Origin: a virus | IMG/VR virus record: IMGVR_UViG_3300021956_000013 | Span: 1,236 to 65,235 of that record | Length of the DNA: 64,000 bases | Strand: one strand, 5' to 3' | Part shown: positions 36,075 through 55,481 of the stretch, piece by piece | How positions within the stretch are numbered: the first letter of the stretch is position 1 | Layout: each line of letters opens with the position of its first letter | Notes under the pieces: generated by a model | Database searches by the model: none | Told to the model about the DNA's origin: nothing | What the model saw: the letters and a program-made list of their open reading frames with translations, nothing else | Position numbers and translations under genes: made by a program

Positions 36075-36321
36075 GCTTTCTAGATACCGTGCAAATCTGA
36101 AAAAATTTTTATATTTCATATTGACAAAAATCTGAATATTTTGCTAGTGTGTATGATACAGCATCCACTACACACCTATAAAATTTTTAGTGAGCACACC
36201 ACCACACACTAGTAAATTCTTTTATAACAAATAGATAACATCATGCGACACACCTACTAAACACCTAGTAAATGTCAGTGCTATCCTGTAATGTATAACT
36301 ATACAAAGAAAGGTAAATGAA

Positions 36322-36507
36322 ATGTTCAGAACACAAGACCAGACACTAGCAGTTGCTCACCTATGGGCTATTGAGATTCCCTATGAAGGTGTTGATTCTT
36401 ACTTAGGTCTATTTGCTACACAAGAACTAGCACAGGCGTTCATTGACGCTGATGAATACTTACAGGGCTACGCTGTTGCTATGCCTATGGCTTTGCCTAC
36501 TGCCTAA
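36322..36507 (+). CDS. Cassette ORF, hypothetical
   Basis: Motif promoter, GAAAGG RBS; stop abuts next motif. Confidence 0.7.
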   Translation: MFRTQDQTLAVAHLWAIEIPYEGVDSYLGLFATQELAQAFIDADEYLQGYAVAMPMALPTA

Positions 36508-36561
36508 TGTCAGTGGTATCACTTATACTTATAACATCAAACAAAGAATAGGAAATAATAA

Positions 36562-36708
36562 ATGTCAGTAGAACTAACAGAACTAGAACTAGAAATCGCA
36601 ACTGAACTTGCTTGCTATGACTTTGATGGAAATGGTAAGCAGTTCTGGGCAGAGGTAGAGAGACTTGCTCAGTTTGGAGAAAACTGGGGAGACCACCTGC
36701 CAGAGTAA
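36562..36708 (+). CDS. Cassette ORF, acidic 48 aa
   Basis: MSVELTELELEIATELACYDFDG...; motif promoter and RBS. Confidence 0.65.
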   Translation: MSVELTELELEIATELACYDFDGNGKQFWAEVERLAQFGENWGDHLPE

Positions 36709-36774
36709 ATGTCAGTGGTATCCACTACAATAAACCTATAAACAAATAAACCAACTAAAAGAAAGAAATACTAA

Positions 36775-36942
36775 ATGAAAATCTATTCAATAATCATCAC
36801 AGGCTCTAATGGCGTTGCCCCTATCTATGAAGTTCATTCTTGGGAAAAGGCAGAAGAAGTTATCCGTTCTACTATGAAACTAACTAATGAAGCCTTTACT
36901 TTTGAAGTAGTAGGCAGAGTAGAAGAAAGACAGGGGGAGTAA
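36775..36942 (+). CDS. Cassette ORF, 55 aa
   Basis: MKIYSIIITGSNGVAPIYEVHSWEKAEEV... Confidence 0.65.
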   Translation: MKIYSIIITGSNGVAPIYEVHSWEKAEEVIRSTMKLTNEAFTFEVVGRVEERQGE

Positions 36943-36999
36943 GTGTGGTTAGCCTTATTCTTAACCTTGCTCGTGTTGCTCGTATTGGTAAGTCAGTAG
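36943..36999 (+). CDS. TM micropeptide, 18 aa
   Basis: GTG start, WLALFLTLLVLLVLVSQ; GGGGAG upstream. Confidence 0.4.
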   Translation: MWLALFLTLLVLLVLVSQ

Positions 37000-37001
37000 T
37001 A

Positions 37002-37100
37002 ATGCCACAGATACAGGCTTTTGCTTGTAAGCGTTGCTCTACTATCGCAAGCGTATCGCTACTAGATAATAAACTAAAGATAAATAAATGTAATTGCTAA
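37002..37100 (+). CDS. Cys-rich micro-ORF, 32 aa
   Basis: MPQIQAFACKRC...KCNC. Confidence 0.5.
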   Translation: MPQIQAFACKRCSTIASVSLLDNKLKINKCNC

Positions 37101-37149
37101 GGTTGTGGGCGTGTCGCTATTGACATGCCCCAACTTTTGTGCCGACCCC

Positions 37150-37170
37150 TGTGGATAACTCTGTGGATAG
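37150..37170 (-). promoter_or_regulatory. Tandem DnaA boxes
   Basis: TGTGGATAA (reverse complement of TTATCCACA) at 37150 and TGTGGATAG at 37162. Confidence 0.6.
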
Positions 37171-37296
37171 TTGTTCATTTAGTTAATCTTTTAAGTTATT
37201 TGCAAAATGTTCGCAAACACGCTTATTTTGGCGTGTCAAATAGGGTCAAATGTCAGTGGTTAGGTATAGTCTAATAAAGTCAAAGAAAGGACAAAA

Positions 37297-37431
37297 ATGA
37301 AAGACAAAAAGACAGAACTAACCCAGATGTTAGCCAAGTATGCGAGAGCAGGAATACCCCTAACTAACGCTGAGAAAAACCTAATCAAGTATCTACTAGC
37401 CAAAGATAACAAAATGATAACGAATAAGTAA
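37297..37431 (+). CDS. Cassette ORF, 44 aa basic
   Basis: Motif promoter, GAAAGG RBS. Confidence 0.6.
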   Translation: MKDKKTELTQMLAKYARAGIPLTNAEKNLIKYLLAKDNKMITNK

Positions 37432-37525
37432 ATATTCGCAAAACTGAACATAATGGGCGTGTCAAAGGGTCTAAATGTCAGTGGTAGGGTATAGAGTAAT
37501 AATAGATAAAAGAAAGGCAAGTCAA

Positions 37526-37645
37526 ATGACTAACTACGAAATCAAAGCAAGATACAAAGAACTAATGCGTATCGCAGAAAGTGATGTAATGACAGCAAGC
37601 GAGTTTGATGAACTTATGGCAATGTTCGCAAAACTAAATAAATAA
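37526..37645 (+). CDS. Cassette ORF, 39 aa
   Basis: Motif promoter, GAAAGG RBS. Confidence 0.6.
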   Translation: MTNYEIKARYKELMRIAESDVMTASEFDELMAMFAKLNK

Positions 37646-37663
37646 AACTTAGTTTAGTTAGTG

Positions 37664-37706
37664 AGCCTGATTAGGTGAGCCTAGAAATAGCAAATAAACT
37701 AATCAG
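37664..37706 (+). ncRNA. Pseudoknot motif, variant copy
   Basis: gccTGATTAggt...aaacTAATCA; compensatory variant of the TGAGCA/TGCTCA pairing. Confidence 0.45.
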
Positions 37707-37773
37707 CAAATAAATAACTAAACAAAAACAAAACTAAATAAATAATAATCTACAAAAAAGAAATGAGAAATAA

Positions 37774-38184
37774 ATGAAAATAAAAACTTGGAAAGAAACC
37801 CAAATCCTTCTATCACTTAGCGACTATCGCAAGTTTTATGCGACTATCGCAGAACTGCCTAATGGTGAAAAGTCTATCGCTATCCATAACAAACTAATCA
37901 ACCTTAGCAATGTTTATCTAAACTATGACTATGAAAATGATACAATGCTATCTCAAAAAAATAGTGAGTGGAAATACTCTGCTGAACTAGATAGTTTTGC
38001 TACGAGTGAGTTTGTAAAAGTAAAAAACTTACTTGCTGAACTAAATGAGTTAGGCGTGAAAAGTTATTCTAACGAAATGCGTGTCAGTGATGGCGAAACT
38101 TATTTCTTAGCGTTTCTAAAAATGGAGTGCGTGTTGCGTTCTCGTGTGTTGCTTGCTCACTCTTATAGAGTAAAGCAACGCTAA
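37774..38184 (+). CDS. Hypothetical protein, 136 aa
   Basis: ORF with A-rich leader, followed by hairpin. Confidence 0.7.
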   Translation: MKIKTWKETQILLSLSDYRKFYATIAELPNGEKSIAIHNKLINLSNVYLNYDYENDTMLSQKNSEWKYSAELDSFATSEFVKVKNLLAELNELGVKSYSNEMRVSDGETYFLAFLKMECVLRSRVLLAHSYRVKQR

Positions 38185-38258
38185 AAATAAATTAGCAAAA
38201 AAAATAATTGTGTTAGTAAAAATAAAATTGCTAACGCAAAAATTTTTTGCCGACCGCC

Positions 38259-38272
38259 CGAACAAATGTTCG
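38259..38272. promoter_or_regulatory. SOS (LexA) box
   Basis: CGAAC-AAAT-GTTCG, matches the Gram-positive/actinobacterial CGAAC-N4-GTTCG consensus. Confidence 0.7.
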
Positions 38273-38329
38273 AATTAAGTGGAGCGTGTCGTTTCCCTAA
38301 ATGTCAGTGGTATGGTATAGGTTATAACT

Positions 38330-38476
38330 ATGAATAAATCAACTTGTTTCCTTTGCTCAGTCGCTACCCCTGCTCACCTTGTTGTTATTTCTAATGGCAA
38401 TGTGTTCCGTTCATGTGAGGCTTGCCTTGCTGGATACCCTGACCACCTAATCGAAACAACTATCGCTCTACCCTAA
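38330..38476 (+). CDS. Leaderless zinc-finger micro-ORF, 48 aa
   Basis: CFLC...CEAC; ATG about 6 nt after -10. Confidence 0.65.
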   Translation: MNKSTCFLCSVATPAHLVVISNGNVFRSCEACLAGYPDHLIETTIALP

Positions 38477-38490
38477 CGAAAGGTTCCACT

Positions 38491-38592
38491 ATGGAAAACT
38501 GCTGCTACTGCAACACTCCCTCTGTTCAAATCTGGGGGCAGGTCTGCTCAGATTGTGAGGACACCCTAGACTGGGGTGATGACGAAGACTAG
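38491..38592 (+). CDS. Zinc-finger acidic micro-ORF, 33 aa
   Basis: CCYC...CSDC, D-rich end; GAAAGG RBS. Confidence 0.6.
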   Translation: MENCCYCNTPSVQIWGQVCSDCEDTLDWGDDED

Positions 38593-38624
38593 ACTTGACA
38601 AAACACCCGAAAGGGTGCCGACCC

Positions 38625-38638
38625 CGAACAAATGTTCG
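38625..38638. promoter_or_regulatory. SOS (LexA) box
   Basis: Second identical CGAACAAATGTTCG. Confidence 0.7.
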
Positions 38639-38712
38639 ATTTACGTTGGGGGATTCTTTTCCCTAAATGTCAGTGGTAGGTGGTAGTGTATAACTATAAC
38701 GAAAGGAAGCCA

Positions 38713-38838
38713 ATGGAAATCATTCTCATTGAAGCAAGTTGCTCCAAATGCTGTGATTCACTGTTTTCAAGCAGCGAGCAAGAGTTCAAAACTCTACTAG
38801 ATAACCACGATTGCAAAACTGCGACCAGACCTTACTAG
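38713..38838 (+). CDS. CxxC...HxC mini-protein (family A)
   Basis: ASCSKCCDSLFSSSEQEFKTLLDNHDC. Confidence 0.65.
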   Translation: MEIILIEASCSKCCDSLFSSSEQEFKTLLDNHDCKTATRPY

Positions 38839-38891
38839 TCTGTGTCAGTGGTATCTGCTAAAATAAAACTAATCAAGAAAGGTAAAAACTA

Positions 38892-39041
38892 ATGGCAAAA
38901 ATGGCTGAACTATTCGAGGCAACTAACTATCCAGAGTTGGAGATTGCTGAGTGTGCTAAGTGTGGAACTGAAATCCTATTCGCAACTGAAACTGAGTTTG
39001 AGAAGTTGGTTGCTGAACACATACACACTTATCGCTGGTAG
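38892..39041 (+). CDS. CxxC...HxH mini-protein (family A)
   Basis: MAKMAELFEATN...AECAKCGTEILFATETEFEKLVAEHIH. Confidence 0.7.
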   Translation: MAKMAELFEATNYPELEIAECAKCGTEILFATETEFEKLVAEHIHTYRW

Positions 39042-39201
39042 GTGTGTCGCACTTGACAAAAGCCCTTCGGGGTGCCGACCGCAAAAATTTCCAAATGTCA
39101 ATACGACACGCCAAAAAATTTTCCAGAAATAAAGCGTGTCTAAATAATCAAATGTCAGTGGTCAGGTGTATAATAAAGGTATAAAGAAAAGGAAATAATA
39201 A

Positions 39202-39288
39202 ATGAGTGAAAAAGAAATGACACCAGAGCAGTTAGTAGCAGAGCAGGAATACCTTGCTTGGTTAGCAGAAGTTAGAAGACAAGGCTAA
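39202..39288 (+). CDS. Cassette micro-ORF, 28 aa
   Basis: Motif promoter and AAGGA RBS. Confidence 0.55.
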   Translation: MSEKEMTPEQLVAEQEYLAWLAEVRRQG

Positions 39289-39362
39289 CGCTCTGGCGTG
39301 TTTAACGCCTAATGTCAGTGGTATCCTGTAAAATAGAACTAATCAAAAGAAATGGAAAATAA

Positions 39363-39533
39363 ATGTTAGACAAGAACTCAAACATCTACCAAGTAGTAGA
39401 AGCCCTAAAAACTAAGAACTCAGTTTCTGCTGATGCTCCATACCCTTACCTGTCTGGTATGTGTTGGAGTTTGCTAAATGAAACTCAGCGTAAAAAGTTG
39501 ATAGAAATGGTAAATAAGATGGAGAATAAATAA
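39363..39533 (+). CDS. Cassette ORF, 56 aa
   Basis: Motif promoter; translationally coupled to next ORF. Confidence 0.65.
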   Translation: MLDKNSNIYQVVEALKTKNSVSADAPYPYLSGMCWSLLNETQRKKLIEMVNKMENK

Positions 39534-39629
39534 ATGGAAGACTGGAAACTCGCATTAGCAGAAATCCAAAAGTCAATGAGAGAAGACTTTATTTCTCAAA
39601 TCAAAACTAATGAACAGGAAAATAAATAA
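39534..39629 (+). CDS. Micro-ORF, 31 aa
   Basis: TAAATG coupling; GGAG RBS. Confidence 0.55.
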   Translation: MEDWKLALAEIQKSMREDFISQIKTNEQENK

Positions 39630-39835
39630 TGGTAAAAGTTGCTCTAGTAATCTCAACACTAATCTTAGGTGTATTCAGTTTTGTAATCGCTGACGCTTAT
39701 AGATACACTTCACTAATCAATGACCAAGAGAGTTATAAAGTATTCTCTGGTCAATGGGCGTTAGTTGGTGTTCAGTTTGTAGTTGGTTCTCTAATCTTGG
39801 CGTTGATGTTCATAATCAAATCACGCAAGAAATAA
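39629..39835 (+). CDS. Two-TM membrane protein
   Basis: Two hydrophobic helices, basic tail. Confidence 0.7.
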   Translation: MVKVALVISTLILGVFSFVIADAYRYTSLINDQESYKVFSGQWALVGVQFVVGSLILALMFIIKSRKK

Positions 39836-39890
39836 AAAAATAATCTTGTGGGTGTGTCGCTTGACATACCCCAAGATTTTTGCCGACCCC

Positions 39891-39899
39891 TGTGGATAA
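39891..39899 (-). promoter_or_regulatory. DnaA box
   Basis: TGTGGATAA within GCCGACCCCTGTGGATAAC, identical to 37141-37159. Confidence 0.6.
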
Positions 39900-39999
39900 C
39901 TTATAACGATTTGGTTACGAGAGTTAAGAAACACCCCCTAAATCCCCTAAATGTCAGTGGTATCCCCTATAATAGAAACATAACAAGAAAGGCTAACTA

Positions 40000-40152
40000 A
40001 TGAACTTACCAACCAAACTACACAAGAACCCTAGCAAGAGATACACCCTATTTGAATACACCATAAATGGCTCAACAGTTGTATCTGCTATTCATTTCTA
40101 CGACTTGCTCCCATTTCTAGCAGAACACCCAGAAGCCAAGCGTGTCCGCTAG
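40000..40152 (+). CDS. Cassette ORF, 50 aa
   Basis: Motif promoter, GAAAGG RBS. Confidence 0.65.
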   Translation: MNLPTKLHKNPSKRYTLFEYTINGSTVVSAIHFYDLLPFLAEHPEAKRVR

Positions 40153-40206
40153 GCTAAATGTCAGTGGTGCCCTGTATAATTGAACTAACTAAGAAAGGTA
40201 AAACTA

Positions 40207-40353
40207 ATGGCTAAAATGGCAGAACTATTTGAAGAGACTAACAGCATTATTTTTGATGTTGCTGAATGTGCAGAGTGTGGAGTTGAAATTGAATTCTCTA
40301 CTGATAAAGAATTTGCTGAATTGGTAAATGGACACGTTTGTGTCCGCTACTGA
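40207..40353 (+). CDS. CxxC...HxC mini-protein (family A)
   Basis: MAKMAELFEETN...AECAECGVEIEFSTDKEFAELVNGHVC; paralog of 38892. Confidence 0.7.
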   Translation: MAKMAELFEETNSIIFDVAECAECGVEIEFSTDKEFAELVNGHVCVRY

Positions 40354-40405
40354 TGTCAGTGGTCAGTTGTATAATTGAAATACCTAAAAGAAATGGAAAA
40401 ATAAA

Positions 40406-40594
40406 ATGGATAATATGGACAAGTTCTATGAACAGCGTGAGCAAGATTTCTGGACTTACTGGAACAAGGTAAAGGCTTATGCTGATGAAGCCAACACTGA
40501 TATTTATCAGGTTGTCAATTTTAGACAAATCTTTGACCAAGCCTATACGCTAGGTGCATTGCAAACACACAAGAAAGAAGATAATAATGAGTGA
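40406..40594 (+). CDS. Cassette ORF, 62 aa
   Basis: Motif promoter. Confidence 0.7.
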   Translation: MDNMDKFYEQREQDFWTYWNKVKAYADEANTDIYQVVNFRQIFDQAYTLGALQTHKKEDNNE

Positions 40595-40685
40595 AGAAGA
40601 AATAATAATTCTTGATAAACTAATTGACCACTTCAATTTTTTTGAAAAACTAATCGCTGAAAATAAAGAACAGGAAAAAAACTAA
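40587..40685 (+). CDS. Micro-ORF, 32 aa
   Basis: Overlap-coupled to neighbours. Confidence 0.5.
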   Translation: MSEEEIIILDKLIDHFNFFEKLIAENKEQEKN

Positions 40686-40885
40686 TGGACATCTATGAAA
40701 AATTTACTCAAGAAGAATTAGAGCAGATGCATGATGAAATGCTGGATGAAACTTATCCACCATACAGAATTGGATACACAGATTTTTATCCATCACAAAT
40801 TTTAGCAAACTGCGACCCAATCATGTATCAAATTTCTGTTCAAGAGTATGCAGACTTTTTGCAAGAGCAGGAAAATGAAGAATGA
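40685..40885 (+). CDS. Acidic phage hypothetical protein
   Basis: DEMLDETYP...PSQILANCDPI. Confidence 0.7.
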   Translation: MDIYEKFTQEELEQMHDEMLDETYPPYRIGYTDFYPSQILANCDPIMYQISVQEYADFLQEQENEE

Positions 40886-40941
40886 TTGCTCTGGGAATAA
40901 TTTTAACAGTTTTAGTGTTTATATATTTAGTAAATCAATAA
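40882..40941 (+). CDS. TM micropeptide, 19 aa
   Basis: MIALGIILTVLVFIYLVNQ; ATGA overlap. Confidence 0.5.
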   Translation: MIALGIILTVLVFIYLVNQ

Positions 40942-41067
40942 ATAAAATTGGTGGTGTGTCTTCTTGACATGCCACCTTTTTTGTGCCGACCGCCCCTGGC
41001 GTGTCGTGTATTAAGTGCTGATGTCAGTAGTCCCCTGTATAATTATTTTATCTAAGAAAGGCTAACT

Positions 41068-41181
41068 ATGGAAGAAAAGACCACCTGCGATTTCTGTTCT
41101 AATGAATGGATTGGCTATGTCCAAATTGGAAATGACTTACCTTGGGTATGCGAAACACACTGGGAAATGTACGCTAAGTAA
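41068..41181 (+). CDS. Zinc-finger micro-ORF, 37 aa
   Basis: CDFC...CETH. Confidence 0.65.
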   Translation: MEEKTTCDFCSNEWIGYVQIGNDLPWVCETHWEMYAK

Positions 41182-41233
41182 ATGTCAGTGGCTACCTGTA
41201 TAATTATTCTATCAACCAAGAAAGGCACTAACT

Positions 41234-41512
41234 ATGGCAGTATTCAATTTCATTTCTGATGATTCACACGGATGGATGGAAGTTTCTCTAATCGAATTCC
41301 CTGAAGCAATAAACTACGCATCAGGTTTTGGCTACATCAACGGAAATACTATTTATCTTGAAGAAGATGATGAGGCTGAAAACTTTATCTACCACCTGAG
41401 AAGTCAGGGTGAGCCTATCACTTTCGCTGAGAAAATCTATGACGGACAGTGGTATGGCAGAGCGTATGCTCGCAATGTCAGGGGTATGCACTATAATCAA
41501 ACTACTAACTAA
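41234..41512 (+). CDS. Hypothetical protein, 92 aa
   Basis: FISDDSHGW...IYLEED; 3' end contains next promoter motif. Confidence 0.7.
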   Translation: MAVFNFISDDSHGWMEVSLIEFPEAINYASGFGYINGNTIYLEEDDEAENFIYHLRSQGEPITFAEKIYDGQWYGRAYARNVRGMHYNQTTN

Positions 41513-41523
41513 GAAAGGCAACT

Positions 41524-41637
41524 ATGCTACTATACAGTGATGACTATGAGCCAGACAACTATGAGGGAGACCAAGACCTCAATGAGTATGAGGATGACTG
41601 GTCAACTGTTGAGAGCGAACTCTTCGGAGATTGCTAA
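41524..41637 (+). CDS. Very acidic micro-ORF, 37 aa
   Basis: SDDYEPDNYEGDQDLNEYEDDW; GAAAGG RBS. Confidence 0.6.
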   Translation: MLLYSDDYEPDNYEGDQDLNEYEDDWSTVESELFGDC

Positions 41638-41769
41638 CTCAGCACCCTTCGGGGTGCCGACCACGACACGCCCGAAAAACATTTAAGATAAAAAAAGATT
41701 TTCCCCATTTCCTATTGCCAAATGTCAGTGGTATCGCTTATAATAGAAGTATCAAGAAAGGAAAAACTA

Positions 41770-41925
41770 ATGAAAACTATTTGCGTATTTTGTCTAGAAG
41801 TCTATGGGGAAGACGCTATTGGTTGCTGGTCTTGTAATGAATACAAGGGCATAATGCCACTAAACGAAGAAACACTAAACTACTTAGGCGAAGACCTAGA
41901 AGACTGGGCAGAATACCTAGTCTAA
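41770..41925 (+). CDS. Zinc-finger acidic protein, 51 aa
   Basis: CVFC...CWSC. Confidence 0.7.
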   Translation: MKTICVFCLEVYGEDAIGCWSCNEYKGIMPLNEETLNYLGEDLEDWAEYLV

Positions 41926-41964
41926 TGTCAGTGGTCGCTGGTAAAATAATAACATCAACAAGAA

Positions 41965-42177
41965 ATGGAAAATAAAATGGAAAATGAAAAAAAGAGATAC
42001 ACCTTTGGTGGCTTCACATTTGGCACTAACAACCTGTTCAACCTAACTATCCTAGTTCGCAACCACGCTGGACACGGAACTAGCAACTCTGTTGAACTTG
42101 GACTAGAACTAAATACTGCTGAAATCCAAGAACTAATCACTGTTCTACTAACTAGAAATGTAAAGGAAGATAACTAA
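41965..42177 (+). CDS. Cassette ORF, 70 aa
   Basis: Motif promoter. Confidence 0.65.
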   Translation: MENKMENEKKRYTFGGFTFGTNNLFNLTILVRNHAGHGTSNSVELGLELNTAEIQELITVLLTRNVKEDN

Positions 42178-42368
42178 TGATGACACGCAAGGACTATGTT
42201 AGCACTGCTGAGATTTTGGCAGACTATCGCAGAGATTTTTACTCTACCCCCGAAACTGCTGACAGTTTTGAAGCAATGGTAAATGACTTTGCTCAAATGT
42301 TCGCAGATGACAACGAGAGATTTATGCGTTCTAAGTTTATTGACGCTTGCTTAGGAGAGGATTTCTAA
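42177..42368 (+). CDS. Hypothetical protein, 63 aa
   Basis: MTRKDY...AQMFADDNERFMRSKFIDAC, a common phage small-protein pattern. Confidence 0.75.
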   Translation: MMTRKDYVSTAEILADYRRDFYSTPETADSFEAMVNDFAQMFADDNERFMRSKFIDACLGEDF

Positions 42369-42521
42369 ATGGAAATTGTATTCGCAATACTTGGAGTTAT
42401 TCTAGTTGGTTATTTATTCTGGCAGAGTTATTTGCTTGCTAATTATTCTAAAATTATAGATAACCAAAAAGATGTTATCGCTAAGTTGGCTAGAGAGATA
42501 GACACACTAAAACCTTTTTAG
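42369..42521 (+). CDS. TM plus coiled-coil protein, 50 aa
   Basis: Hydrophobic N-terminus; GGAGAGG RBS. Confidence 0.6.
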   Translation: MEIVFAILGVILVGYLFWQSYLLANYSKIIDNQKDVIAKLAREIDTLKPF

Positions 42522-42648
42522 TTTTCTCAATCGCTACCCTTCGGGGTGGCGATTTGGGTCGGCAGCCCAAGGTTACATCTAGGTTACGATAATTAAGAAA
42601 CACACCCAAAATCTCCACGATGTCAGTGGTATTGTGTATAATAGGACT

Positions 42649-42819
42649 ATGAAGAAAAGAAAGCCACCACTAAATAAAGTTGCTCAGGCAACTCGCAACG
42701 CACACTCAGCAGAACTTTTTAGAAGTCTGTTACTAAACAAGCACCTAGTCGCTACCCCTGCCAAGCGTAAGGGTTCTCGCAAGGCTAACATCATCAAGGC
42801 TATCAAGGAGTATAACTAA
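42649..42819 (+). CDS. Leaderless basic protein, 56 aa
   Basis: K/R-rich; ATG about 6 nt after TATAAT. Confidence 0.65.
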   Translation: MKKRKPPLNKVAQATRNAHSAELFRSLLLNKHLVATPAKRKGSRKANIIKAIKEYN

Positions 42820-43115
42820 TGGCTAAATCAAATAAAGTAAATCTAATGGACATAACAGACCTGCCACTAGAAGAACAAATCTATCAAATCCTAAGAGGTA
42901 GAGGTTTCCACACTAGGTTTGTAGGTATAGACCTAAGAGAGTTAGCAGAGGAAATAGTTTTTACTCTTGACTTTGTAAATGGAGATAATCCTGACCAGCC
43001 TATTATCCTGAATACCCTGCCAGAAATAACAGGTGAAGACGGAGTTCCAGCACTAGACCTAATCAAGCGTTTTGGTTTAGATGACTATGTTATGGAGAGT
43101 GTCCTAAATGGATAA
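42819..43115 (+). CDS. Hypothetical protein
   Basis: AAGGAG RBS, coupled start. Confidence 0.7.
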   Translation: MAKSNKVNLMDITDLPLEEQIYQILRGRGFHTRFVGIDLRELAEEIVFTLDFVNGDNPDQPIILNTLPEITGEDGVPALDLIKRFGLDDYVMESVLNG

Positions 43116-43470
43116 GAAAACTATTATTGAAAAATACAACATTGACCCTAATCAAACCCTAGATGTCTTCTATGACAATGGCGAGGTATGGTGTAGTGAA
43201 GATGGTGAGTGGTCAGTATTTCATTGTGGAGAAATGAGAGTTGACTACAATGGCGAAAGACTATACACAAACACGGACTTTATCAAAGTTGGTTTAGATA
43301 CAGATGACAAAGTTGGTGAAGCAGAGGCTAACGAAGAACTCTATTGGCACATGAACCCATGGTTTATTGTTGCTAAAAAAGATGACCTAGATAATGAGTA
43401 TGGAATTACAGGCAACATCATTGATGCAATACAGCAAGCCCTAGTTTTAGCCAATGTCAGTGGTCAGTAG
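43108..43470 (+). CDS. Acidic hypothetical protein
   Basis: 120 aa; ends NVSGQ, encoded by the promoter motif. Confidence 0.7.
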   Translation: MDKKTIIEKYNIDPNQTLDVFYDNGEVWCSEDGEWSVFHCGEMRVDYNGERLYTNTDFIKVGLDTDDKVGEAEANEELYWHMNPWFIVAKKDDLDNEYGITGNIIDAIQQALVLANVSGQ

Positions 43471-43501
43471 TATAATTATCTTATCAAACAAAGGAGAGTA
43501 A

Positions 43502-43633
43502 ATGGAAAACGAAGACAAAGAATACTTCAAGGAAATGTTTGAGCAGTATCACAATGGTGAAATAGATGTTTTTGAACTAATGGATAATCTTGAAACTGAT
43601 AGATTTGATGGAGATGTTTTTGATTACCTGTAA
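43502..43633 (+). CDS. Acidic micro-ORF, 43 aa
   Basis: AAGGAG RBS. Confidence 0.65.
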   Translation: MENEDKEYFKEMFEQYHNGEIDVFELMDNLETDRFDGDVFDYL

Positions 43634-43708
43634 CTAGGTACCCTTCGGGGTCGGCACAATGTCAGTGGTCGTATGTATAATAGACTTACGAAAGAAAGAG
43701 GAAACCCC

Positions 43709-43843
43709 ATGAATGTATCAGTAGAAAAACTAATTGAGATGAAGGTATTGCGAGAGTCTATGTTTGGCTCTGGAGATTGGTATGTAATCTATACCGAAGA
43801 TGGACCTAAAGATGTATCCCTTGCTACCCTGACAAGTGAGTAA
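43709..43843 (+). CDS. Cassette ORF, 44 aa
   Basis: Motif promoter; stop abuts next motif. Confidence 0.65.
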   Translation: MNVSVEKLIEMKVLRESMFGSGDWYVIYTEDGPKDVSLATLTSE

Positions 43844-43892
43844 TGTCAGTGGTTGCCTGTAAAATAGAACTATCAAAAGAAAAGGGAAACTA

Positions 43893-44090
43893 ATGGAATG
43901 TTTAGATTGTATAAATAAAACTCATAAAATTTATTGGGGAGCCTTGTCCGAAAAAGACATGGAGTTATTGGGATACACCTACCATAAGTGTTTATTTTGT
44001 TCTCACCAACCTCTAATTTGGAATACCCTTATTGGAGATGCAGTCTGCGAGGGTTGCGGTGAATGGCAAGATGTCAGTGGTATCAGGTAA
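43893..44090 (+). CDS. Zinc-finger protein
   Basis: CLDC, CLFC, CEGC; ends DVSGIR. Confidence 0.7.
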   Translation: MECLDCINKTHKIYWGALSEKDMELLGYTYHKCLFCSHQPLIWNTLIGDAVCEGCGEWQDVSGIR

Positions 44091-44119
44091 AATAGAACTA
44101 TCAAAAGAAAAGGAAAAAA

Positions 44120-44404
44120 ATGAGACCAGTTGTAATGGATAGACACGTTGCCAACCTTGGACTACAAGCAGGTATGGGTGACGATTGGACAGAACTATTC
44201 TGCGATAAAGAGTTTATGGCTATGCTCCAGACTCACTATAACCAGATGGTGAAATACATAAAGGCTAAGTATCTTACTTATCCGTGTAATGATTTTGCTC
44301 CAGATACCCTTGCTCCAGACGAGCGAGATGGAATTGATTGGACGCTGGTATGCACTACTTGTCTGCACCATAAGCAAGACCATAATGTCAGTGGTATCAA
44401 GTAA
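44120..44404 (+). CDS. Cys/His-containing protein
   Basis: CTTCLHHKQDH; ends NVSGIK. Confidence 0.7.
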   Translation: MRPVVMDRHVANLGLQAGMGDDWTELFCDKEFMAMLQTHYNQMVKYIKAKYLTYPCNDFAPDTLAPDERDGIDWTLVCTTCLHHKQDHNVSGIK

Positions 44405-44434
44405 AATAGTATTATCAAAAGAAAAGGAAAACTA

Positions 44435-44956
44435 ATGGAACAAAACTTAGATGTAATGATTGCGACAGTATCAACAGATTGTCAGTGTAGTTATTTTGAC
44501 GAAGAACTAGATGACTTTGTTGCTATGGAGTATTGCGAAGGCGATTGCTACTACTGGCAGAAGGAAGATGTGATGATGGTGATTGGCGAATGGCAGTTGC
44601 TGAATGACATTGACGAAGATGACCTTATCCGTATCTCTGGAACTAAGATTGGTTGGCAGGGTAGAAGTGGATACAAGGATACAGACATTCTAGAACTACA
44701 CGGAGCGTTAGCCCTTGACGGAGATTTCCGTATCACTTGGACACTAGACATTCCAAACAAGAAACTAACTGCTAGGCGTTCATCTCACGATGAACCTATG
44801 GGAGCAAACTTTGAGATTGACTTTATCAAGATGACTACTTGCGACAATTGCGATAACGCCATCTCTGTTGATACTCACGCAGAAGAACTTGGTATGTGTG
44901 TTGATTGCTCTAACGAATACTTTACTCACAATGACGAAGAGCCTATTGACTTGTAG
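44435..44956 (+). CDS. Acidic Cys-rich protein, 173 aa
   Basis: SSHDEPMG motif, CDNC...CVDC. Confidence 0.75.
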   Translation: MEQNLDVMIATVSTDCQCSYFDEELDDFVAMEYCEGDCYYWQKEDVMMVIGEWQLLNDIDEDDLIRISGTKIGWQGRSGYKDTDILELHGALALDGDFRITWTLDIPNKKLTARRSSHDEPMGANFEIDFIKMTTCDNCDNAISVDTHAEELGMCVDCSNEYFTHNDEEPIDL

Positions 44957-44979
44957 AGAGTAATGTGAGACAATAGAGT

Positions 44980-45048
44980 ATGAATACAACAATAACGATA
45001 ATCACAATAGGAAGTTTAGCAATACTGCTATTCTTACTAAATCAGTAG
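44980..45048 (+). CDS. TM micropeptide, 22 aa
   Basis: MNTTITIITIGSLAILLFLLNQ. Confidence 0.45.
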   Translation: MNTTITIITIGSLAILLFLLNQ

Positions 45049-45188
45049 TCCTGCTACCCTCGAAAGAGGGTGCCAGGCTGCCGACCGCAAATGTAACAAA
45101 ACGATAAATCATTTACGAAACACCCTAAATGTCCCCTAAATGTCAGGGGTAGCCCTTATAATAGAACTACAACAAAGAAAGGAAACCA

Positions 45189-45566
45189 ATGGAAGATTAT
45201 TGGGATGATGTAGAAATGGCAGTTCAGTTTGCTCAGGGTATCGCTTTTGATACCTGCCACAAAATCTATGTTCTTATGGATGATAAGCAAGTAGAACTTA
45301 TGCGTGAGTATCAGTATGACGAGATTAGAACTAGAAGTGAAATGAAACCAGCAGAAATGTTTGACACTCTAAAAAAGTGGTATGCCGAAAGTTGTGCCTT
45401 GAAGTTTATTCAGGGTGTTCATAGCGTAGGTGAGAACGAAGACGAGAATGATGGTTTTGACACACTTATTCCACAAGGGGCAGAGCAAGAAGAAGACGAA
45501 TGCGACTTATGCTTTTCTCATTGTGGAGATACCTGCCAAGACGATGATGAAGAAGACGAAGACTAA
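45189..45566 (+). CDS. Acidic hypothetical protein
   Basis: GIAFDTCHKIY...SCALKFI; D/E tail. Confidence 0.75.
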   Translation: MEDYWDDVEMAVQFAQGIAFDTCHKIYVLMDDKQVELMREYQYDEIRTRSEMKPAEMFDTLKKWYAESCALKFIQGVHSVGENEDENDGFDTLIPQGAEQEEDECDLCFSHCGDTCQDDDEEDED

Positions 45567-45670
45567 TGGAACAAATAGTCTTAGAGTGTGAGAGTAATCA
45601 CGAATGGATTGGCTCACCGCTTTACTGCTCCGCCTGTGGAGTAGATAAAGGAAACGAAACCAACCCCTAA
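45566..45670 (+). CDS. Zinc-ribbon micro-ORF, 34 aa
   Basis: CESNHEW...CSACG. Confidence 0.6.
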   Translation: MEQIVLECESNHEWIGSPLYCSACGVDKGNETNP

Positions 45671-45723
45671 TGTCAGTGGTTAGGTTTATAATAGAAATAC
45701 AACAAAAGATAAGGAATAAATAA

Positions 45724-46125
45724 ATGGAAAACAACGAAAGCAAGCACCCTGTTCTTACTGCCCTAAATGGCAAGATAGAAGAACTACTAGCACAACTAGC
45801 AAAACTACAAGCAGACTACGAATTGCTTGATAGCAGATACGCAAGGGAAGTTAGAGCAAGGCAAGACCACGAAACTTACCTAAACGAAACTCTAATGAAC
45901 GCTATTGAGAATGGCTACGACAGAGAAACCATTTTCTATGTTGCTAACGAACTTGATGTTTCACTAACACAACTAAAAACATTTGTGGTTCAGGCAGAGT
46001 TTCAGGTAGAAGTCATTATGCCTATTGACGAAGAGTTTGATGCTGATGACTTGGACTTTACCCTAAGCCACGAAAATCTAAATGATTATACTTTCACAGG
46101 TATAATTTCTAGTGAAGAGAATTAG
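45724..46125 (+). CDS. Coiled-coil acidic protein
   Basis: 133 aa, motif promoter. Confidence 0.75.
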   Translation: MENNESKHPVLTALNGKIEELLAQLAKLQADYELLDSRYAREVRARQDHETYLNETLMNAIENGYDRETIFYVANELDVSLTQLKTFVVQAEFQVEVIMPIDEEFDADDLDFTLSHENLNDYTFTGIISSEEN

Positions 46126-46152
46126 GCGGTTCTAACCTTTCTTTTCCGCCTA

Positions 46153-46180
46153 ACACCTGAGTAAGTGTATAAACTGCTCA
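46153..46180 (+). ncRNA. H-type pseudoknot motif
   Basis: ACAC-c-TGAGTA-a-GTGT-ataaac-TGCTCA. Confidence 0.55.
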
Positions 46181-46289
46181 TTTTTTGTGCCGACCAAAAA
46201 TAACAAATCCATAACTTATTTACGATAGCCCTTGTAAATGTCAGGGGTAGGCTGTATAATAGAACTATCAAAGAAAGAGAGAAAACCCT

Positions 46290-46517
46290 ATGTTGTATGT
46301 AGCCCCTGATGGAAACTATGGTGAAGCAGAATACCTTGTTGTTGTAGATAACGAGAGTTTTGACGAACACTTTTACGGATACCTTGACACTTGTGCTGAC
46401 TGGCTAAGACCTAGTTTTGCTAAGTGGTTTGAAGAAAATGACCACGACTTTACCCAAGCAGATAACTTAGAGTGGGCTTGTTCCGTTTGTGAAGAGTGGT
46501 TAGAGAGTGAGAGATAA
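46290..46517 (+). CDS. Acidic hypothetical protein
   Basis: YVAPDGNYGEA. Confidence 0.7.
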   Translation: MLYVAPDGNYGEAEYLVVVDNESFDEHFYGYLDTCADWLRPSFAKWFEENDHDFTQADNLEWACSVCEEWLESER

Positions 46518-46645
46518 TGGCAGAAGTAAACTATTGGCGAAACATGTTCTATGACCTGCTTGAAGAAGTAGAGCAAATGTATGGACATGAAGATGTTTGG
46601 GAAAAGTTCAGGGAATACGCAAAAGAGTTAGAAGAGGATAACTAA
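46517..46645 (+). CDS. Acidic micro-ORF, 42 aa
   Basis: TAATG coupling on both sides. Confidence 0.6.
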   Translation: MAEVNYWRNMFYDLLEEVEQMYGHEDVWEKFREYAKELEEDN

Positions 46646-46833
46646 TGATAGTTCAGGTTCAATGCAACTGGTGTGAAAAACTATTTGATGATGTTGACAT
46701 CGTAGAGTGTGATGTTTGTAAGACAGACTCTTACCTAATGGACATAAGAGATGAGCCTTGGGGTCTTGACTCTTCCAAGGGGTATTCAATCTATGGTCAG
46801 GAAACAGGTCTAAGGGATAGTGACTTTATCTAA
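46645..46833 (+). CDS. Zinc-ribbon protein
   Basis: CNWC...CDVC. Confidence 0.7.
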   Translation: MIVQVQCNWCEKLFDDVDIVECDVCKTDSYLMDIRDEPWGLDSSKGYSIYGQETGLRDSDFI

Positions 46834-46876
46834 TGTCAGTGGTAGGGTTTATAATAGAACTAACGAAAGGAAACAA

Positions 46877-46978
46877 ATGATAAACTTTGACAATGTTATC
46901 AACGAAGAAGCAATCGAAAAACTAACAGATGAGCAAGCAGAAGCCTTATTGGCTATTTTAGAGAAAGCAGGATACTAA
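46877..46978 (+). CDS. Micro-ORF, 33 aa
   Basis: FDNVINEEAIEKLTDEQAEALLAIL; GAAAGG RBS. Confidence 0.65.
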   Translation: MINFDNVINEEAIEKLTDEQAEALLAILEKAGY

Positions 46979-47178
46979 TGCCTAAATACGCATTCAACTT
47001 TTGGGAAGAAAGCAAATGGGCTATCACCTTTGAAGCAGACAACCTAGACCACGCTAAGAAACTATTGGCAGAAGCAGAAGAAGAAATGGACTTAGATTGG
47101 TTGCCTGAAATGGAACGCTTTTTCAAAAAGGGTGATGAAACTTGGGACAGCGAAACACTAGCAGAAGTGGAGAACTAA
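46978..47178 (+). CDS. DpnD/PcfM-like acidic protein
   Basis: YAFNF...ITFEADNLDHAKKL pattern. Confidence 0.55.
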   Translation: MPKYAFNFWEESKWAITFEADNLDHAKKLLAEAEEEMDLDWLPEMERFFKKGDETWDSETLAEVEN

Positions 47179-47339
47179 TGGAACTAGCACAAGCATACGA
47201 AATAGTATTAGCAGACTTAGAAGAAAGAAATAGTCATACCATAGGTAGATTGCTTCACTGGGACTGGACAGGTCAAAATGAAGAACTTATGTATAGGGCT
47301 TGGTTGGTTGCTAAAACTTTTATTGAGCAGAACGAATAG
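47178..47339 (+). CDS. Hypothetical protein
   Basis: Coupled start MELAQAYE. Confidence 0.6.
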   Translation: MELAQAYEIVLADLEERNSHTIGRLLHWDWTGQNEELMYRAWLVAKTFIEQNE

Positions 47340-47409
47340 CACTACCCTTCGGGGTCGGCAGCCAAAAATAACAGAATGATAACGCTTTACGAAATCTTTT
47401 ACGAAACCC

Positions 47410-47438
47410 TTGACTTTTCCCCCATTTTCCCTTATACT
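47410..47438 (+). promoter_or_regulatory. Canonical sigma-A-type promoter
   Basis: TTGACT-17-TATACT. Confidence 0.7.
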
Positions 47439-47487
47439 TGTAGTATCAACAAAAGTTGAGAAAAACTACAAGTAGAAAGAAGCAAAA

Positions 47488-47646
47488 ATGGCAAACACAT
47501 TTACCATTCCATCTGTTGGCTCACAGTTCGCAACCCAGAAGTCTGGCGTTGTTGGCACAGTTCAGGAAGTAATCAAGAACGCAAATGGTTCATTCCGTAT
47601 CAAACTTGATGTTGCTGGACAGCCACGCTGGACAACTGCTAAGTAA
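47488..47646 (+). CDS. Small beta-barrel (SH3/KOW-like) protein, 52 aa
   Basis: PSVGSQFATQKSGVVGTVQEVIKNANGSFRIKLDV; biased codons. Confidence 0.75.
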   Translation: MANTFTIPSVGSQFATQKSGVVGTVQEVIKNANGSFRIKLDVAGQPRWTTAK

Positions 47647-47661
47647 GTCCTAGAAATAGGG

Positions 47662-47695
47662 CAGACCTGAGCAAGTCTGGCAAAAAAACTGCTCA
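47662..47695 (+). ncRNA. H-type pseudoknot motif
   Basis: CAGAC-c-TGAGCA-a-GTCTG-gcaaaaaaac-TGCTCA. Confidence 0.55.
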
Positions 47696-47701
47696 ACCCT
47701 A

Positions 47702-47730
47702 TTGACAAATCCCTTATCAACCTGTATAAT
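47702..47730 (+). promoter_or_regulatory. Consensus sigma-A-type promoter
   Basis: TTGACA-17-TATAAT. Confidence 0.8.
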
Positions 47731-47768
47731 TGTATTATACAAATAACCCTAATAGAAAGTAGAAAATA

Positions 47769-48209
47769 ATGGCAAGAGCCTTATCAGTAAAAGTTCCAAC
47801 ATCAAGTCTAATCGCTTTGTTGGAAGACAAAATCGCAACAATCCAAACTGCTATCGCAGATTATCCAAGAGCAAAGGCTCAATACAAGGAAGATGTAAAG
47901 GCATACAAGAAGTCTGTCCTAAACCTTGCCCTATCCAAGATTGCTTCTAACCCAGAAGTCTTGTTTGATAACGATAGCCTAGATGTTAGCACATCTTATC
48001 GCAATGATGTCCAAATCACTTTGGATAAGGACTTGTTTGAGTTGCCAGAAATGCCAGAGCAACCAGAAGACCCAAATCGTAAAGAGTGGATTGGCAGAGA
48101 CCACACAACTAAGTTGTCTGTTTTAGAGAAAACTCTGGCTGTTCTAAAACTAACAAATCAGGAAGAAGTAAGTGCTTCCACATACAACTCTGTAATGGAG
48201 TTGCTATAA
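47769..48209 (+). CDS. Hypothetical protein, 146 aa
   Basis: Consensus promoter; ALSVKVPT...LKLTNQEEVSASTYNSV. Confidence 0.8.
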   Translation: MARALSVKVPTSSLIALLEDKIATIQTAIADYPRAKAQYKEDVKAYKKSVLNLALSKIASNPEVLFDNDSLDVSTSYRNDVQITLDKDLFELPEMPEQPEDPNRKEWIGRDHTTKLSVLEKTLAVLKLTNQEEVSASTYNSVMELL

Positions 48210-48228
48210 ACCATAGGCTTACGCCTAA

Positions 48229-48256
48229 ACACCTAAGCAAGTGTCTAAACTGCTTA
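48229..48256 (+). ncRNA. H-type pseudoknot motif
   Basis: ACAC-c-TAAGCA-a-GTGT-ctaaac-TGCTTA. Confidence 0.55.
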
Positions 48257-48264
48257 TCTCTAAC

Positions 48265-48555
48265 AAGGTTGTTTAGTTTGGGTTCAATTCCCAAATAGAG
48301 AACAAACAAGCGAATGACGATTTGCTTGGAGTATGGCTGAACGAAGTTCTTTGTCTAGGAGGAACGAGAAAGGCACAGCGTGGGTTTAGCGACCCCAACT
48401 TAGCGGTTGAAAGCGTTGGTAGGATGATGGCGGTACTATAAGAGACTCCCAGACTACTCCTTGGTGGTAATAGACAATCCACCTACTCACACACTTCCCC
48501 CTGTGAAGATTGACTATCCTAATTAGATAGGTAAAATTAGCAGGGGGATTTTTTG
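48265..48555 (+). ncRNA. Candidate structured ncRNA with T-loop
   Basis: About 290 nt with no credible ORF; TTGGG-TTCAATT-CCCAA T-arm-like hairpin; ends at tccccctg/caggggga hairpin plus T-run. Confidence 0.35.
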
Positions 48556-48609
48556 TGCCGACCCCCATAACGTTTTGGTAACACTAGTAAAATTGTTTTA
48601 CGAAACACT

Positions 48610-48638
48610 TGACAAATCCCCGAAATAATGGGATAATT
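48610..48638 (+). promoter_or_regulatory. Sigma-A-type promoter
   Basis: TTGACA-17-GATAAT. Confidence 0.65.
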
Positions 48639-48679
48639 GAGTATCAAATAAATCCATTTATCACGAAAGGTGTCCATTT

Positions 48680-49693
48680 ATGGCTCACGAATTAGAAATC
48701 AACGAAGCAACAGGCGAAGCGTCTTTTGCTTCCCTACGCCAACCTGCTTGGCACAATCTTGGAACTGTGTTTCAGGAAGAAGTATCAACTGCTAAGATGT
48801 TGGAATTAGCAAAACTAGACAATTGGAATGTTCGTCTTGAAGATGTGGTTGTCCCTGCTGGTTTTACTAGCGACAGAAACTACTCATTCGTATCTCGCAC
48901 AAATCCATTCAACGCAGAACAAACAGACATTCTTGGTGTCGTTGGTGAGCGTTATGTTCCACTACAAAATGAAGACTTGTTTTCATTTGGCGATAACTTG
49001 CTAGATGGTGGTGGGCGTTGGGAAACTGCTGGTTCAATCAAGGGTGGCAGACAAGTTTTCGGTTCTATCGCATTAGAGCGTGAAACTGTCCTTGACCCTA
49101 ATGGCGTGTCTGATGTTGTCAAGTCATACCTGCTACTAAACACAAGCCACGATGGAAGTATCGCTATCCAAGCGTCTATTACTCCTGTTCGTGTAGTTTG
49201 TGCTAACACTCTAAACCTTGCTCTATCTTCTCTAAAAGGTAAAAAGGGTATCAAACAAACTTTCAAGATTAGACACACACAAACAGCAGAAGGTAAAATC
49301 GCTGTTGCTCGTGAAGCGTTGGGTCTTGCTAATCACTACTTAGACGAGTTTGATTTACTTGCTAAGGAAATGATTGCTAAGGAAATCACACAGGCTAAGT
49401 TTGATGAGATTGTTCTAAAAGCGTATCCAATGCCAACTAAGGACAGCAAGGGTTCTATGAAGAAGTGGTCAGATAAGATTGACCTTATTCAATCTATCTA
49501 TGTTGGCGATTACAACAACACAATTTCAGGAACTGCTTGGGGTGCTTTGAACGCATTGACAGAACGCCTAGATTGGTATCGCAACTCTCGTGGTTCAAAC
49601 AACGAAAGCATTTACGCAAGTGCTTCTGGTTTTGACCCTGTAATCAACGCAGAGAAAAATCGTTTGATGAACTTGGTTTTGGCAAGCGTATAA
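48680..49693 (+). CDS. DUF932 / TIGR03299 phage-plasmid protein
   Basis: MAHELE...PAWHNLG, GVVGERYVPLQN, ETAGSIKGGRQVF, SHDGS, TPVRVVCANTL, GTAWGALNA. Confidence 0.9.
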   Translation: MAHELEINEATGEASFASLRQPAWHNLGTVFQEEVSTAKMLELAKLDNWNVRLEDVVVPAGFTSDRNYSFVSRTNPFNAEQTDILGVVGERYVPLQNEDLFSFGDNLLDGGGRWETAGSIKGGRQVFGSIALERETVLDPNGVSDVVKSYLLLNTSHDGSIAIQASITPVRVVCANTLNLALSSLKGKKGIKQTFKIRHTQTAEGKIAVAREALGLANHYLDEFDLLAKEMIAKEITQAKFDEIVLKAYPMPTKDSKGSMKKWSDKIDLIQSIYVGDYNNTISGTAWGALNALTERLDWYRNSRGSNNESIYASASGFDPVINAEKNRLMNLVLASV

Positions 49694-49699
49694 TCTCGC

Positions 49700-49727
49700 A
49701 GACCTGAGCAAGTCTAAAAACTGCTTA
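49700..49727 (+). ncRNA. H-type pseudoknot motif
   Basis: AGAC-c-TGAGCA-a-GTCT-aaaaac-TGCTTA, 6 nt after stop. Confidence 0.55.
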
Positions 49728-49862
49728 CCAATTTCTCACTTGACAAAGTGCGAAATTTGGGTCGGCAATTTCTAACTAGTTAATCATTTATGTTGATTAC
49801 GAAATGGTTAAGATTTCCCTAAAACTATTGCATTTGTCAGTGGTCATCTGTATAATTGACTT

Positions 49863-50171
49863 ATGAATGAAAACGAAACTATTATCCTTACCCCTGTTTA
49901 TGACGAAGACAACGCACCTTACATCTACCCTGACGCAGATGACTTACAATCCTATCAAAGATTACAGTTTATCGTGTGGGGGCTAGAAAGCCTAGAAAAG
50001 CAACTATGGAACTCTGCTGAACGAGGCTGGCACGACACCAGTGGTCCCGAATTCCAATCATTCCTAAAGATGATTAGGGGTATCTACAACGAGAAGACTG
50101 ATAGCCTTACTAAGTATAACTTTGTAATCCTAGAAGACGAGATGTTAGAGCAAGCATCACAGATGTTCTAA
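49863..50171 (+). CDS. Leaderless hypothetical protein
   Basis: ATG about 6 nt after TATAAT; stop abuts next motif. Confidence 0.7.
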   Translation: MNENETIILTPVYDEDNAPYIYPDADDLQSYQRLQFIVWGLESLEKQLWNSAERGWHDTSGPEFQSFLKMIRGIYNEKTDSLTKYNFVILEDEMLEQASQMF

Positions 50172-50220
50172 TGTCAGTGGTATCCCCTATAATAAGAACC
50201 TAACAGAAAGAGAAAACCCT

Positions 50221-55312: not shown

Positions 55313-55481
55313 GTAATTCTCCATCTAGAAGAGCAATAAATTCAGAAATTGCATTGTATCTACCCAATGAATAATTATCACCATCAGAAACTTCTGTCTC
55401 CAACTTCATACCAAACTCACCCAAAAGATTTCTAATGCGTTTACGTTCTGCAACTTGTCCCTTTATGTAGTCTAGTTCCAT
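55305..55481 (-). CDS. Small protein (GxxxERxRI family), 58 aa
   Basis: YIKGQVAERKRIRNLL; coupled to both neighbours; below ORF-track cutoff. Confidence 0.6.
   Translation of the reverse strand: MELDYIKGQVAERKRIRNLLGEFGMKLETEVSDGDNYSLGRYNAISEFIALLDGELHE

Follow-up and report, generated by a model that had tools for sequence, protein, structure and literature searches.

Two identical palindromes in the small-gene region of an uncultured lake phage look like operators for the LexA repressor of its host, which is predicted to bind them. Each stands at the head of a short cassette, upstream of a putative promoter of the type activated by the DNA-damage regulator PafBC. It is probable, in our view, that these boxes are host LexA operators and that the cassettes copy a dual LexA and PafBC promoter, thereby gating two operons of tiny genes. 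The source record, IMGVR_UViG_3300021956_000013, comprises 70,937 bases, and the window, i.e. the whole 64-kb stretch of DNA that was analysed, corresponds to bases 1236–65235 of this record. Unless another locus is named, positions are those of the window.

The 16-mer CCGAACAAATGTTCGA is present exactly twice in the window, at 38258–38273 and 38624–38639, in agreement with the first-pass annotation, which had reported two perfect boxes there. No other perfect CGAAC-N4-GTTCG site is found in the window or in the whole 70,937-base record, and the window holds no site with exactly one mismatch to this pattern. From base composition, about 0.03 perfect sites would be expected in 64 kb, versus the 2 observed. 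Both boxes read CCGAAC-AAAT-GTTCGA and agree with the actinobacterial SOS box (16 bp, tCGAAC-N4-GNNCGa), which was established in Streptomyces venezuelae by ChIP-seq and SPR (PMC9380542), so the earlier assignment of the motif to actinobacterial LexA holds. With the fully palindromic form of the reported consensus, TCGAAC-N4-GTTCGA, the fit extends to 15 of the 16 positions. The 16-mer is identical at both sites although their flanks differ; as the cassettes are in part paralogues of each other, the boxes should not be counted as two wholly independent occurrences. The features of the two cassettes and of their surroundings are as follows.

38208–38248, + strand: AT-rich terminator-like hairpin (stem 38208–38239) with a T-run as its T-rich tail; it ends the upstream unit (136-aa ORF, 37774–38184)
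38249–38255, + strand: GCCGACC heptamer, head of cassette 1
38258–38273, no strand assigned: putative LexA box 1, CCGAACAAATGTTCGA (core 38259–38272)
38302–38323, + strand: PafBC-type promoter 1 (TGTCAG at 38302–38307, 10 nt, −10 hexamer TAGGTT at 38318–38323)
38330–38476, + strand: ORF A, 48 aa, two CxxC pairs; ATG 6 nt past the −10 hexamer, no Shine-Dalgarno sequence
38491–38592, + strand: ORF B, 33 aa, Cys-rich, acidic tail; ribosome-binding site GAAAGG
38604–38623, + strand: hairpin CACCC-GAAA-GGGTG without a U-tract; overlaps the GCCGACC heptamer (38617–38623) at the head of cassette 2
38624–38639, no strand assigned: putative LexA box 2, CCGAACAAATGTTCGA (core 38625–38638)
38668–38689, + strand: PafBC-type promoter 2 (TGTCAG, 10 nt, −10 hexamer TAGTGT at 38684–38689)
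38713–38838, + strand: ORF C, 41 aa, Cys-rich; ribosome-binding site GAAAGGAAG
38843–38864, + strand: third PafBC-type promoter (motif match), without a LexA box of its own
38892–39041, + strand: ORF D, 49 aa, CxxC...HxH, downstream of the third promoter

The GCCGACC heptamer occurs 16 times in the window versus 0.84 expected. The 14-mer cores of the boxes begin 3 nt and 1 nt past it, within the 1–3 nt reported earlier, and 29 nt separate each core end from the TGTCAG at 38302 or 38668, close to the 30 nt or so that had been given as the distance to a cassette promoter. Counted from the start of the core, TGTCAG lies 43 nt away in both cassettes, which places the box centre near −65 of the inferred transcription start. 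LexA usually represses by overlapping the core promoter (the −35/−10/+1 zone). Here, neither box overlaps the core promoter or the transcription start, and simple occlusion by LexA is therefore unlikely. A sigma-70 scan called no promoter of the TTGACA type in the two cassettes. That the boxes overlap a sigma-A promoter was also considered and not adopted, as no TTGACA/TATAAT-type site was called and the hexamers TTAAGT and TTACGT that follow the boxes are weak. Box 2 itself was scored as a weak terminator-like hairpin by a simple scan.

The genes behind these promoters had been described as small zinc-finger ORFs. They are indeed small (48, 33, 41, and 49 aa) and carry paired Cys or Cys/His residues; a Pfam search with ORFs A–D gave no match, and the capacity to bind zinc is a prediction from these residues. 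A large protein search with ORFs A–D returned a single unnamed 48-aa homologue. ORF C looks like a paralogue of ORF D, judging by eye from a common C..C...EF..L..H pattern, and an ORF B homologue comes after ORF A in the related locus L172. The ATG of ORF A stands 6 nt past the −10 hexamer with no Shine-Dalgarno sequence, an arrangement seen in all its homologues, including those of L309–L314, and its mRNA is therefore probably leaderless.

PafBC is an actinobacterial single-stranded DNA sensor that inserts between sigma-A region 4 and the −26 element of the promoter, a mechanism called 'sigma adaptation'; its promoters (RecA-NDp) follow the consensus tGTCgg(N10)tA(N3)T and have no −35 element (PMC8635444). 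The pattern TGTC[AG]G-N10-TAnnnT occurs 30 times on the + strand of the window (36273–50172) and not once on the − strand. The sites at 38302 and 38668 conform to the PafBC promoter sequence, and the candidate hosts, described below, have both a pafBC-like gene pair and the motif at damage genes. The element annotated at first as a cassette promoter thus fits, in sequence and spacing, a PafBC-type DNA-damage promoter, and its activity would depend on PafBC. Arrays of 6–26 such promoters are found in each of the related phages that have them; these phages lack a WYL gene, and no WYL protein was found in the phage record or in its complete relatives. Two textbook TTGACA-17-TATAAT/GATAAT promoters were also noted after GCCGACC at 48557 and 53709. 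These 48.6-kb and 53.7-kb promoters are candidates for PafBC-independent, immediate-early transcription.

The phage has a G+C content of ~37%. Genes in the minus-strand half of the window specify a tape measure protein of 3122 aa, a portal, a prohead protease, and a capsid-like protein, as well as a ribonucleotide reductase, an NlpC/P60 enzyme, and glycosyltransferases (PHROGs and Pfam scans), and the phage is a siphovirus. More than 559 portal relatives exist in IMG/VR as metagenome contigs. Complete relatives measure 112–116 kb, from which the record represents roughly two-thirds of a genome, with about 30–40% missing. Among cultured phages, large siphophages of Streptomyces, including Coruscant and LukeCage, have the closest portals (45% identity), and megablast of the 36–41 kb region against cultured phages gave no match. 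The absence of a visible integrase or repressor, noted earlier for the window, extends beyond it: no tyrosine or serine integrase (PF00589, PF00239) was found in the whole record or in three 100%-complete relatives, and PHROGs and Pfam scans of a subset of ORFs of at least 90 aa in the record revealed no repressor or partition gene. None of the genes that would mark a LexA-governed lysogeny switch (integrase, partition system, or repressor) was thus detected in the ~70%-complete record, nor was a LexA homologue, either there or in complete relatives. The phage is apparently lytic, part of its genome being missing from the record. The window contains no tRNA gene and hence gives no tRNA-based clue to the host.

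Two other identities were considered for this phage. An N4-like phage, with the 3122-aa ORF as virion RNA polymerase and the hairpins as promoters, is ruled out because this ORF is the tape measure protein. A cyanophage, which the PstS-like gene and the low G+C content had suggested, is ruled out by the 69–70% identity of PstS to Microbacteriaceae proteins and by the Streptomyces-phage-like portal. A pyrimidine-dimer DNA glycosylase gene (Pyr_excise) lies at 55481–55993; like the PstS-like gene, it is a host-like accessory gene.

The box is frequent in related phages. The small-gene regions of 70 related IMG/VR loci, 702 kb altogether, contain 18 perfect boxes in 15 distinct contexts versus ~0.3 expected, and the box ranks first among 30 palindromes of the same composition obtained by permuting the half-site, the next having 8 copies and the median being 0. 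The spacer is of the form A..T in 16 of these 18 boxes, a T or C precedes every one of them, and the 3′ base is A in 11. Homologues of ORF A with 70–88% identity are encoded in six other loci (one further match was spurious), and all true homologues are preceded by a box in an equivalent position, with intact arms in five loci and a single altered base in L309. Across six ORF A-bearing phages, CCGAACA..TGTTC is invariant, the spacers being AAAT, ATCT, or AGGT and the flanks having diverged. An alignment of the ORF A upstream regions and cassette 2 has a mean column identity of 71%, and the longest stretches without variation in it are CCGAACA..TGTTC, which corresponds to the LexA box, and AATGTCAG, which corresponds to the PafBC −26 element. 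Both the enrichment and the conservation expected of a LexA operator are therefore found.

Other features of the cassette are less constant. The box is kept without the GCCGACC heptamer in L313/L314 and in L232/L292, where it stands 33 nt before TGTCAG, and the heptamer is thus not required. Moreover, of 10 relatives searched whole (portal 66–86% identical), eight have no box, and of the two boxes detected, one is within coding DNA; one box-less relative, G019, has 26 PafBC-type promoters and zero boxes. Since these box-less relatives have the same promoter arrays, the boxes appear to be a dispensable, accessory feature. Phages that do bear boxes tend to have two or three of them within 0.3–4 kb, followed by tiny, often Cys-rich ORFs. 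LexA boxes and PafBC-type arrays are both absent from the cultured phages Coruscant and LukeCage, so this wiring seems specific to the uncultured group, whose candidate hosts are lake actinobacteria. As a separate observation, about five LexA-like boxes lie within ~130 bp around GCCGACC (~400–560) in an unrelated contig of 55% G+C, L130 (IMGVR_UViG_3300044266_000171), where the cluster could form a strong LexA-controlled switch or sink. In L110, L124, L136, and L149, two boxes flank GCCGACC.

The best clue to the host is the PstS-like gene (56162–57184), which is 69–70% identical to genes in the MAGs of a 'Rhodoluna sp.' (1.4 Mb) and a 'Micrococcales bacterium' (1.2 Mb). The contig of the latter that carries the PstS homologue also bears lexA and recA, indicating that this copy is chromosomal. 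PstS identity and MAG context together suggest that the host is most likely a small freshwater actinobacterium of the Microbacteriaceae, Rhodoluna-like. In both candidate-host MAGs (G001 and G002), lexA is preceded by the box TCGAACATTTGTTCTA; the reverse complement of the phage box equals it at 14 of 16 bases, spacer included, and it is the candidate hosts' own lexA box that carries a mismatch. Perfect CGAAC-N4-GTTCG sites number 2–3 per candidate host genome (1.2–1.4 Mb), no more than for a control pattern. Tandem WYL ORFs of ~344 and ~347 aa, pafBC-like, were found in G001, G002, G011, and G013. The PafBC motif lies upstream of recA in 12 of 16 host-family genomes, and it is also found before a gene of the candidate host genus that is probably radA, an assignment based on its N-terminal residues only.

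Across the host family, the boxes upstream of recA have the same arms as the phage box. They stand ~85 nt before the PafBC motif, with the recA gene's own −10 hexamer 8 nt after the box, a layout that corresponds to the two-promoter arrangement of mycobacterial recA (PMC8682763). As a side observation, a clean PafBC motif is missing at the recA genes of the small-genome candidate hosts (G001/G002 and their relatives L219, L224, L226, and L227), and the LexA box of G002 recA is degenerate; larger-genome members of the family differ in this respect. Such streamlined cells may have a reduced or rewired control of their damage response.

In mycobacteria, dual LexA/PafBC control is documented for recA, uvrA, and imuA′/imuB (PMC8682763, PMC8223512, PMC8635444), and reviews also count uvrC among the genes that respond to both regulators. 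A comparable design exists in the family of the candidate hosts. The composite pattern CGAA-N6-TTCG, 15–45 nt, TGTCRG-N10-TAnnnT was found in 9 of 201 Microbacteriaceae genomes, versus 0 for the reversed control. The genes behind six of the nine matches are uvrA-like (two), SRAP (two), DUF6504, and an unnamed 208-aa ORF. From box to TGTC, the distance is 41–47 nt at the uvrA-like and SRAP genes and 30 nt at DUF6504, and the SRAP start codon lies 6 nt past the −10 hexamer, in leaderless-looking fashion. The phage cassettes resemble these promoters in having an SOS box upstream of a tGTCgg-N10-tAnnnT promoter without a −35 element, and also in their spacing (43 nt and 6 nt, versus 41–47 nt at the host uvrA-like and SRAP genes and 6 nt at SRAP). 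Unlike them, they are phage-borne and drive tiny Cys-rich ORFs rather than repair genes, and each phage copy stands behind a terminator hairpin and GCCGACC as one of ~30 PafBC-type promoters in a row. The composite design occurs in 2 of 31 genomes of the closest candidate host genus, and given this rarity, the exact host promoter that might have been copied was not found.

With a box ~65 bp upstream of the start of a PafBC-type promoter, the cassette reproduces the LexA and PafBC dual damage-promoter design of the host. From sequence, enrichment, conservation, geometry, and the host parallels, we infer LexA binding, the sign of its effect, the dependence on PafBC, and the timing in the following scheme. 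PafBC, activated by single-stranded DNA that may arise from the phage's own replication or recombination, would allow host RNA polymerase with the housekeeping sigma factor to read all ~30 phage promoters. At two cassettes, LexA bound upstream would repress transcription until RecA-stimulated self-cleavage removes it. ORFs A–B and C, and perhaps D via read-through, would then be made only, or later, in a true SOS state, and the LexA input would serve as an AND gate or a timer. One possibility for the action of LexA at −65 is that it would hinder the upstream DNA contacts of the polymerase–PafBC complex; alternatively, the box might overlap a weak upstream promoter.

Repression of the promoter is not the only effect that LexA could have at this place. 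It could act as a conditional roadblock or insulator that, bound behind a weak U-less hairpin and GCCGACC, stalls read-through and aids termination until its cleavage opens read-through, and the DnaA boxes and RTAAC repeats that fill the same slot in other cassettes would then act likewise. We regard both parts of this proposal as unlikely. The layout suits them. In this phage group, hairpins immediately precede the boxes, which follow GCCGACC by 1–5 nt or its reverse complement by a few nt; the boxes are located upstream of promoters and never over a recognizable −26 or −10 element. A U-tract is missing from the hairpin in front of box 2, and at 37150 and 39891 the equivalent place is taken by perfect DnaA boxes. 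However, no roadblock is needed at the host uvrA-like and SRAP promoters, where the spacing between box and PafBC element is the same, and L313/L314 and L232/L292 retain the box in the absence of GCCGACC. We also know of no evidence for efficient roadblocking by LexA. Titration, which had been put forward in the first-pass annotation, would work in trans: the replicating phage sites would sequester the small number of LexA dimers present in a very small cell and turn on the host SOS response without damage. Candidate hosts have only 2–3 perfect sites each, no more than the control pattern, and since their own lexA box is mismatched, the phage sites may be among the best in the infected cell; the unrelated phage contig L130, with its ~five boxes in ~130 bp, also speaks for such a sink. 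Nevertheless, two sites per phage genome make a small sink, many relatives have no box, and the fixed position relative to the ORF A family and to the promoter argues for control in cis, so that titration appears improbable.

Another possibility is that LexA is not involved and that the palindrome is bound by a protein of the phage itself or serves as a plain DNA or RNA hairpin, its likeness to a LexA site being coincidence or mimicry. With about 30–40% of the genome missing from the record and many small ORFs without an assigned function, there is room for such a protein, and box 2 does score as a weak terminator-like hairpin. Yet the arms are always CGAAC/GTTCG, without the covariation seen in stems, and palindromes of the same composition are far rarer; this sequence specificity makes a hairpin-only reading insufficient. 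The extended consensus (T or C before, an A..T spacer, A after) is moreover shared with LexA sites and with the lexA box of the host, and the phage has no LexA-like gene, all of which leaves this possibility a small probability. Finally, the boxes might be relics that persist without function in a cassette copied from a host damage gene or inherited from a temperate ancestor. The close resemblance of the cassette to host promoters and the dispensability of boxes in relatives are compatible with this, but CCGAACA..TGTTC has remained invariant where the ORF A protein is only 70% identical and the flanks have diverged, and it is one of the two longest invariant blocks of the alignment; a relic is thus very improbable.

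Host LexA operators within copied dual promoters hence remain the preferred explanation. A broader interpretation, which we offer tentatively, is that a lytic phage of ultra-small lake actinobacteria is wired into both arms of the damage response of its host, with PafBC as a general activator and LexA as a second input. Were this the case, the LexA input could hold back a subset of effectors until RecA becomes active, serve as a conditional roadblock after weak terminators, or deplete the cell of LexA. It is likewise conceivable, though doubtful at present, that the phage boxes are better than the host's own and that the host repressor serves as a timing and sensing device of a lytic phage rather than as a prophage switch.

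On mobile elements, LexA boxes have mostly been described as switches for prophage induction, and here they occur in a phage without detected lysogeny genes. CTXphi and coliphage 186 are among the temperate phages with LexA-controlled switches. Such a switch is also known from the temperate Bacillus phage GIL01 (PMC4551915, PMC6182141). As in these elements, host LexA boxes are placed at the element's own promoters, which would sense the SOS state. In GIL01-type systems, LexA sits on the key lysogeny or lytic promoter and governs the induction of a resident prophage or plasmid, whereas here no integrase or repressor was found, the two operons concerned are accessory, with the box at about −65, and boxes are absent from most of the programme. 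The literature searched, the coverage of which was incomplete, yielded no account of a virulent actinophage with LexA boxes in its small-gene region, or of phage promoters of the PafBC type. If the proposal is true, a lytic phage reads both host DNA-damage signals to order its gene expression, and the cassettes offer a natural, compact test case for LexA repression of a PafBC-dependent promoter from about −65, a question that applies equally to the host uvrA-like and SRAP genes.

Additional repeated motifs occur in the same region. GGCGTGTC is present 7 times versus 0.25 expected (37108, 37230, 37456, 39105 on the − strand, 40998, 41665 on the − strand, and 49103), often 12–15 nt upstream of TGTCAG. 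It is the same motif as GACACGCCG, found 10–14 nt upstream of the recA LexA box across the host family (loci L212–L225). Perfect DnaA boxes, TTATCCACA, number nine in the window versus 1 expected. Those at 37150 and 39891 fill the slot after GCCGACC, as the LexA boxes do, five are clustered at 54016–54359, possibly an origin, and the others are at 25473 and 26516. Lastly, direct repeats RTAAC-N6-RTAAC with an 11-bp period come after several LexA boxes or GCCGACC heptamers, on the strand of the promoter array (L090, ~9920; L172, ~6520; L195, ~5345; L239, ~3020; L150, ~3175), as well as in the window cassettes with a GCCGACC head at 45080, 46189, and 48557. They presumably resemble response-regulator sites such as MtrA boxes.
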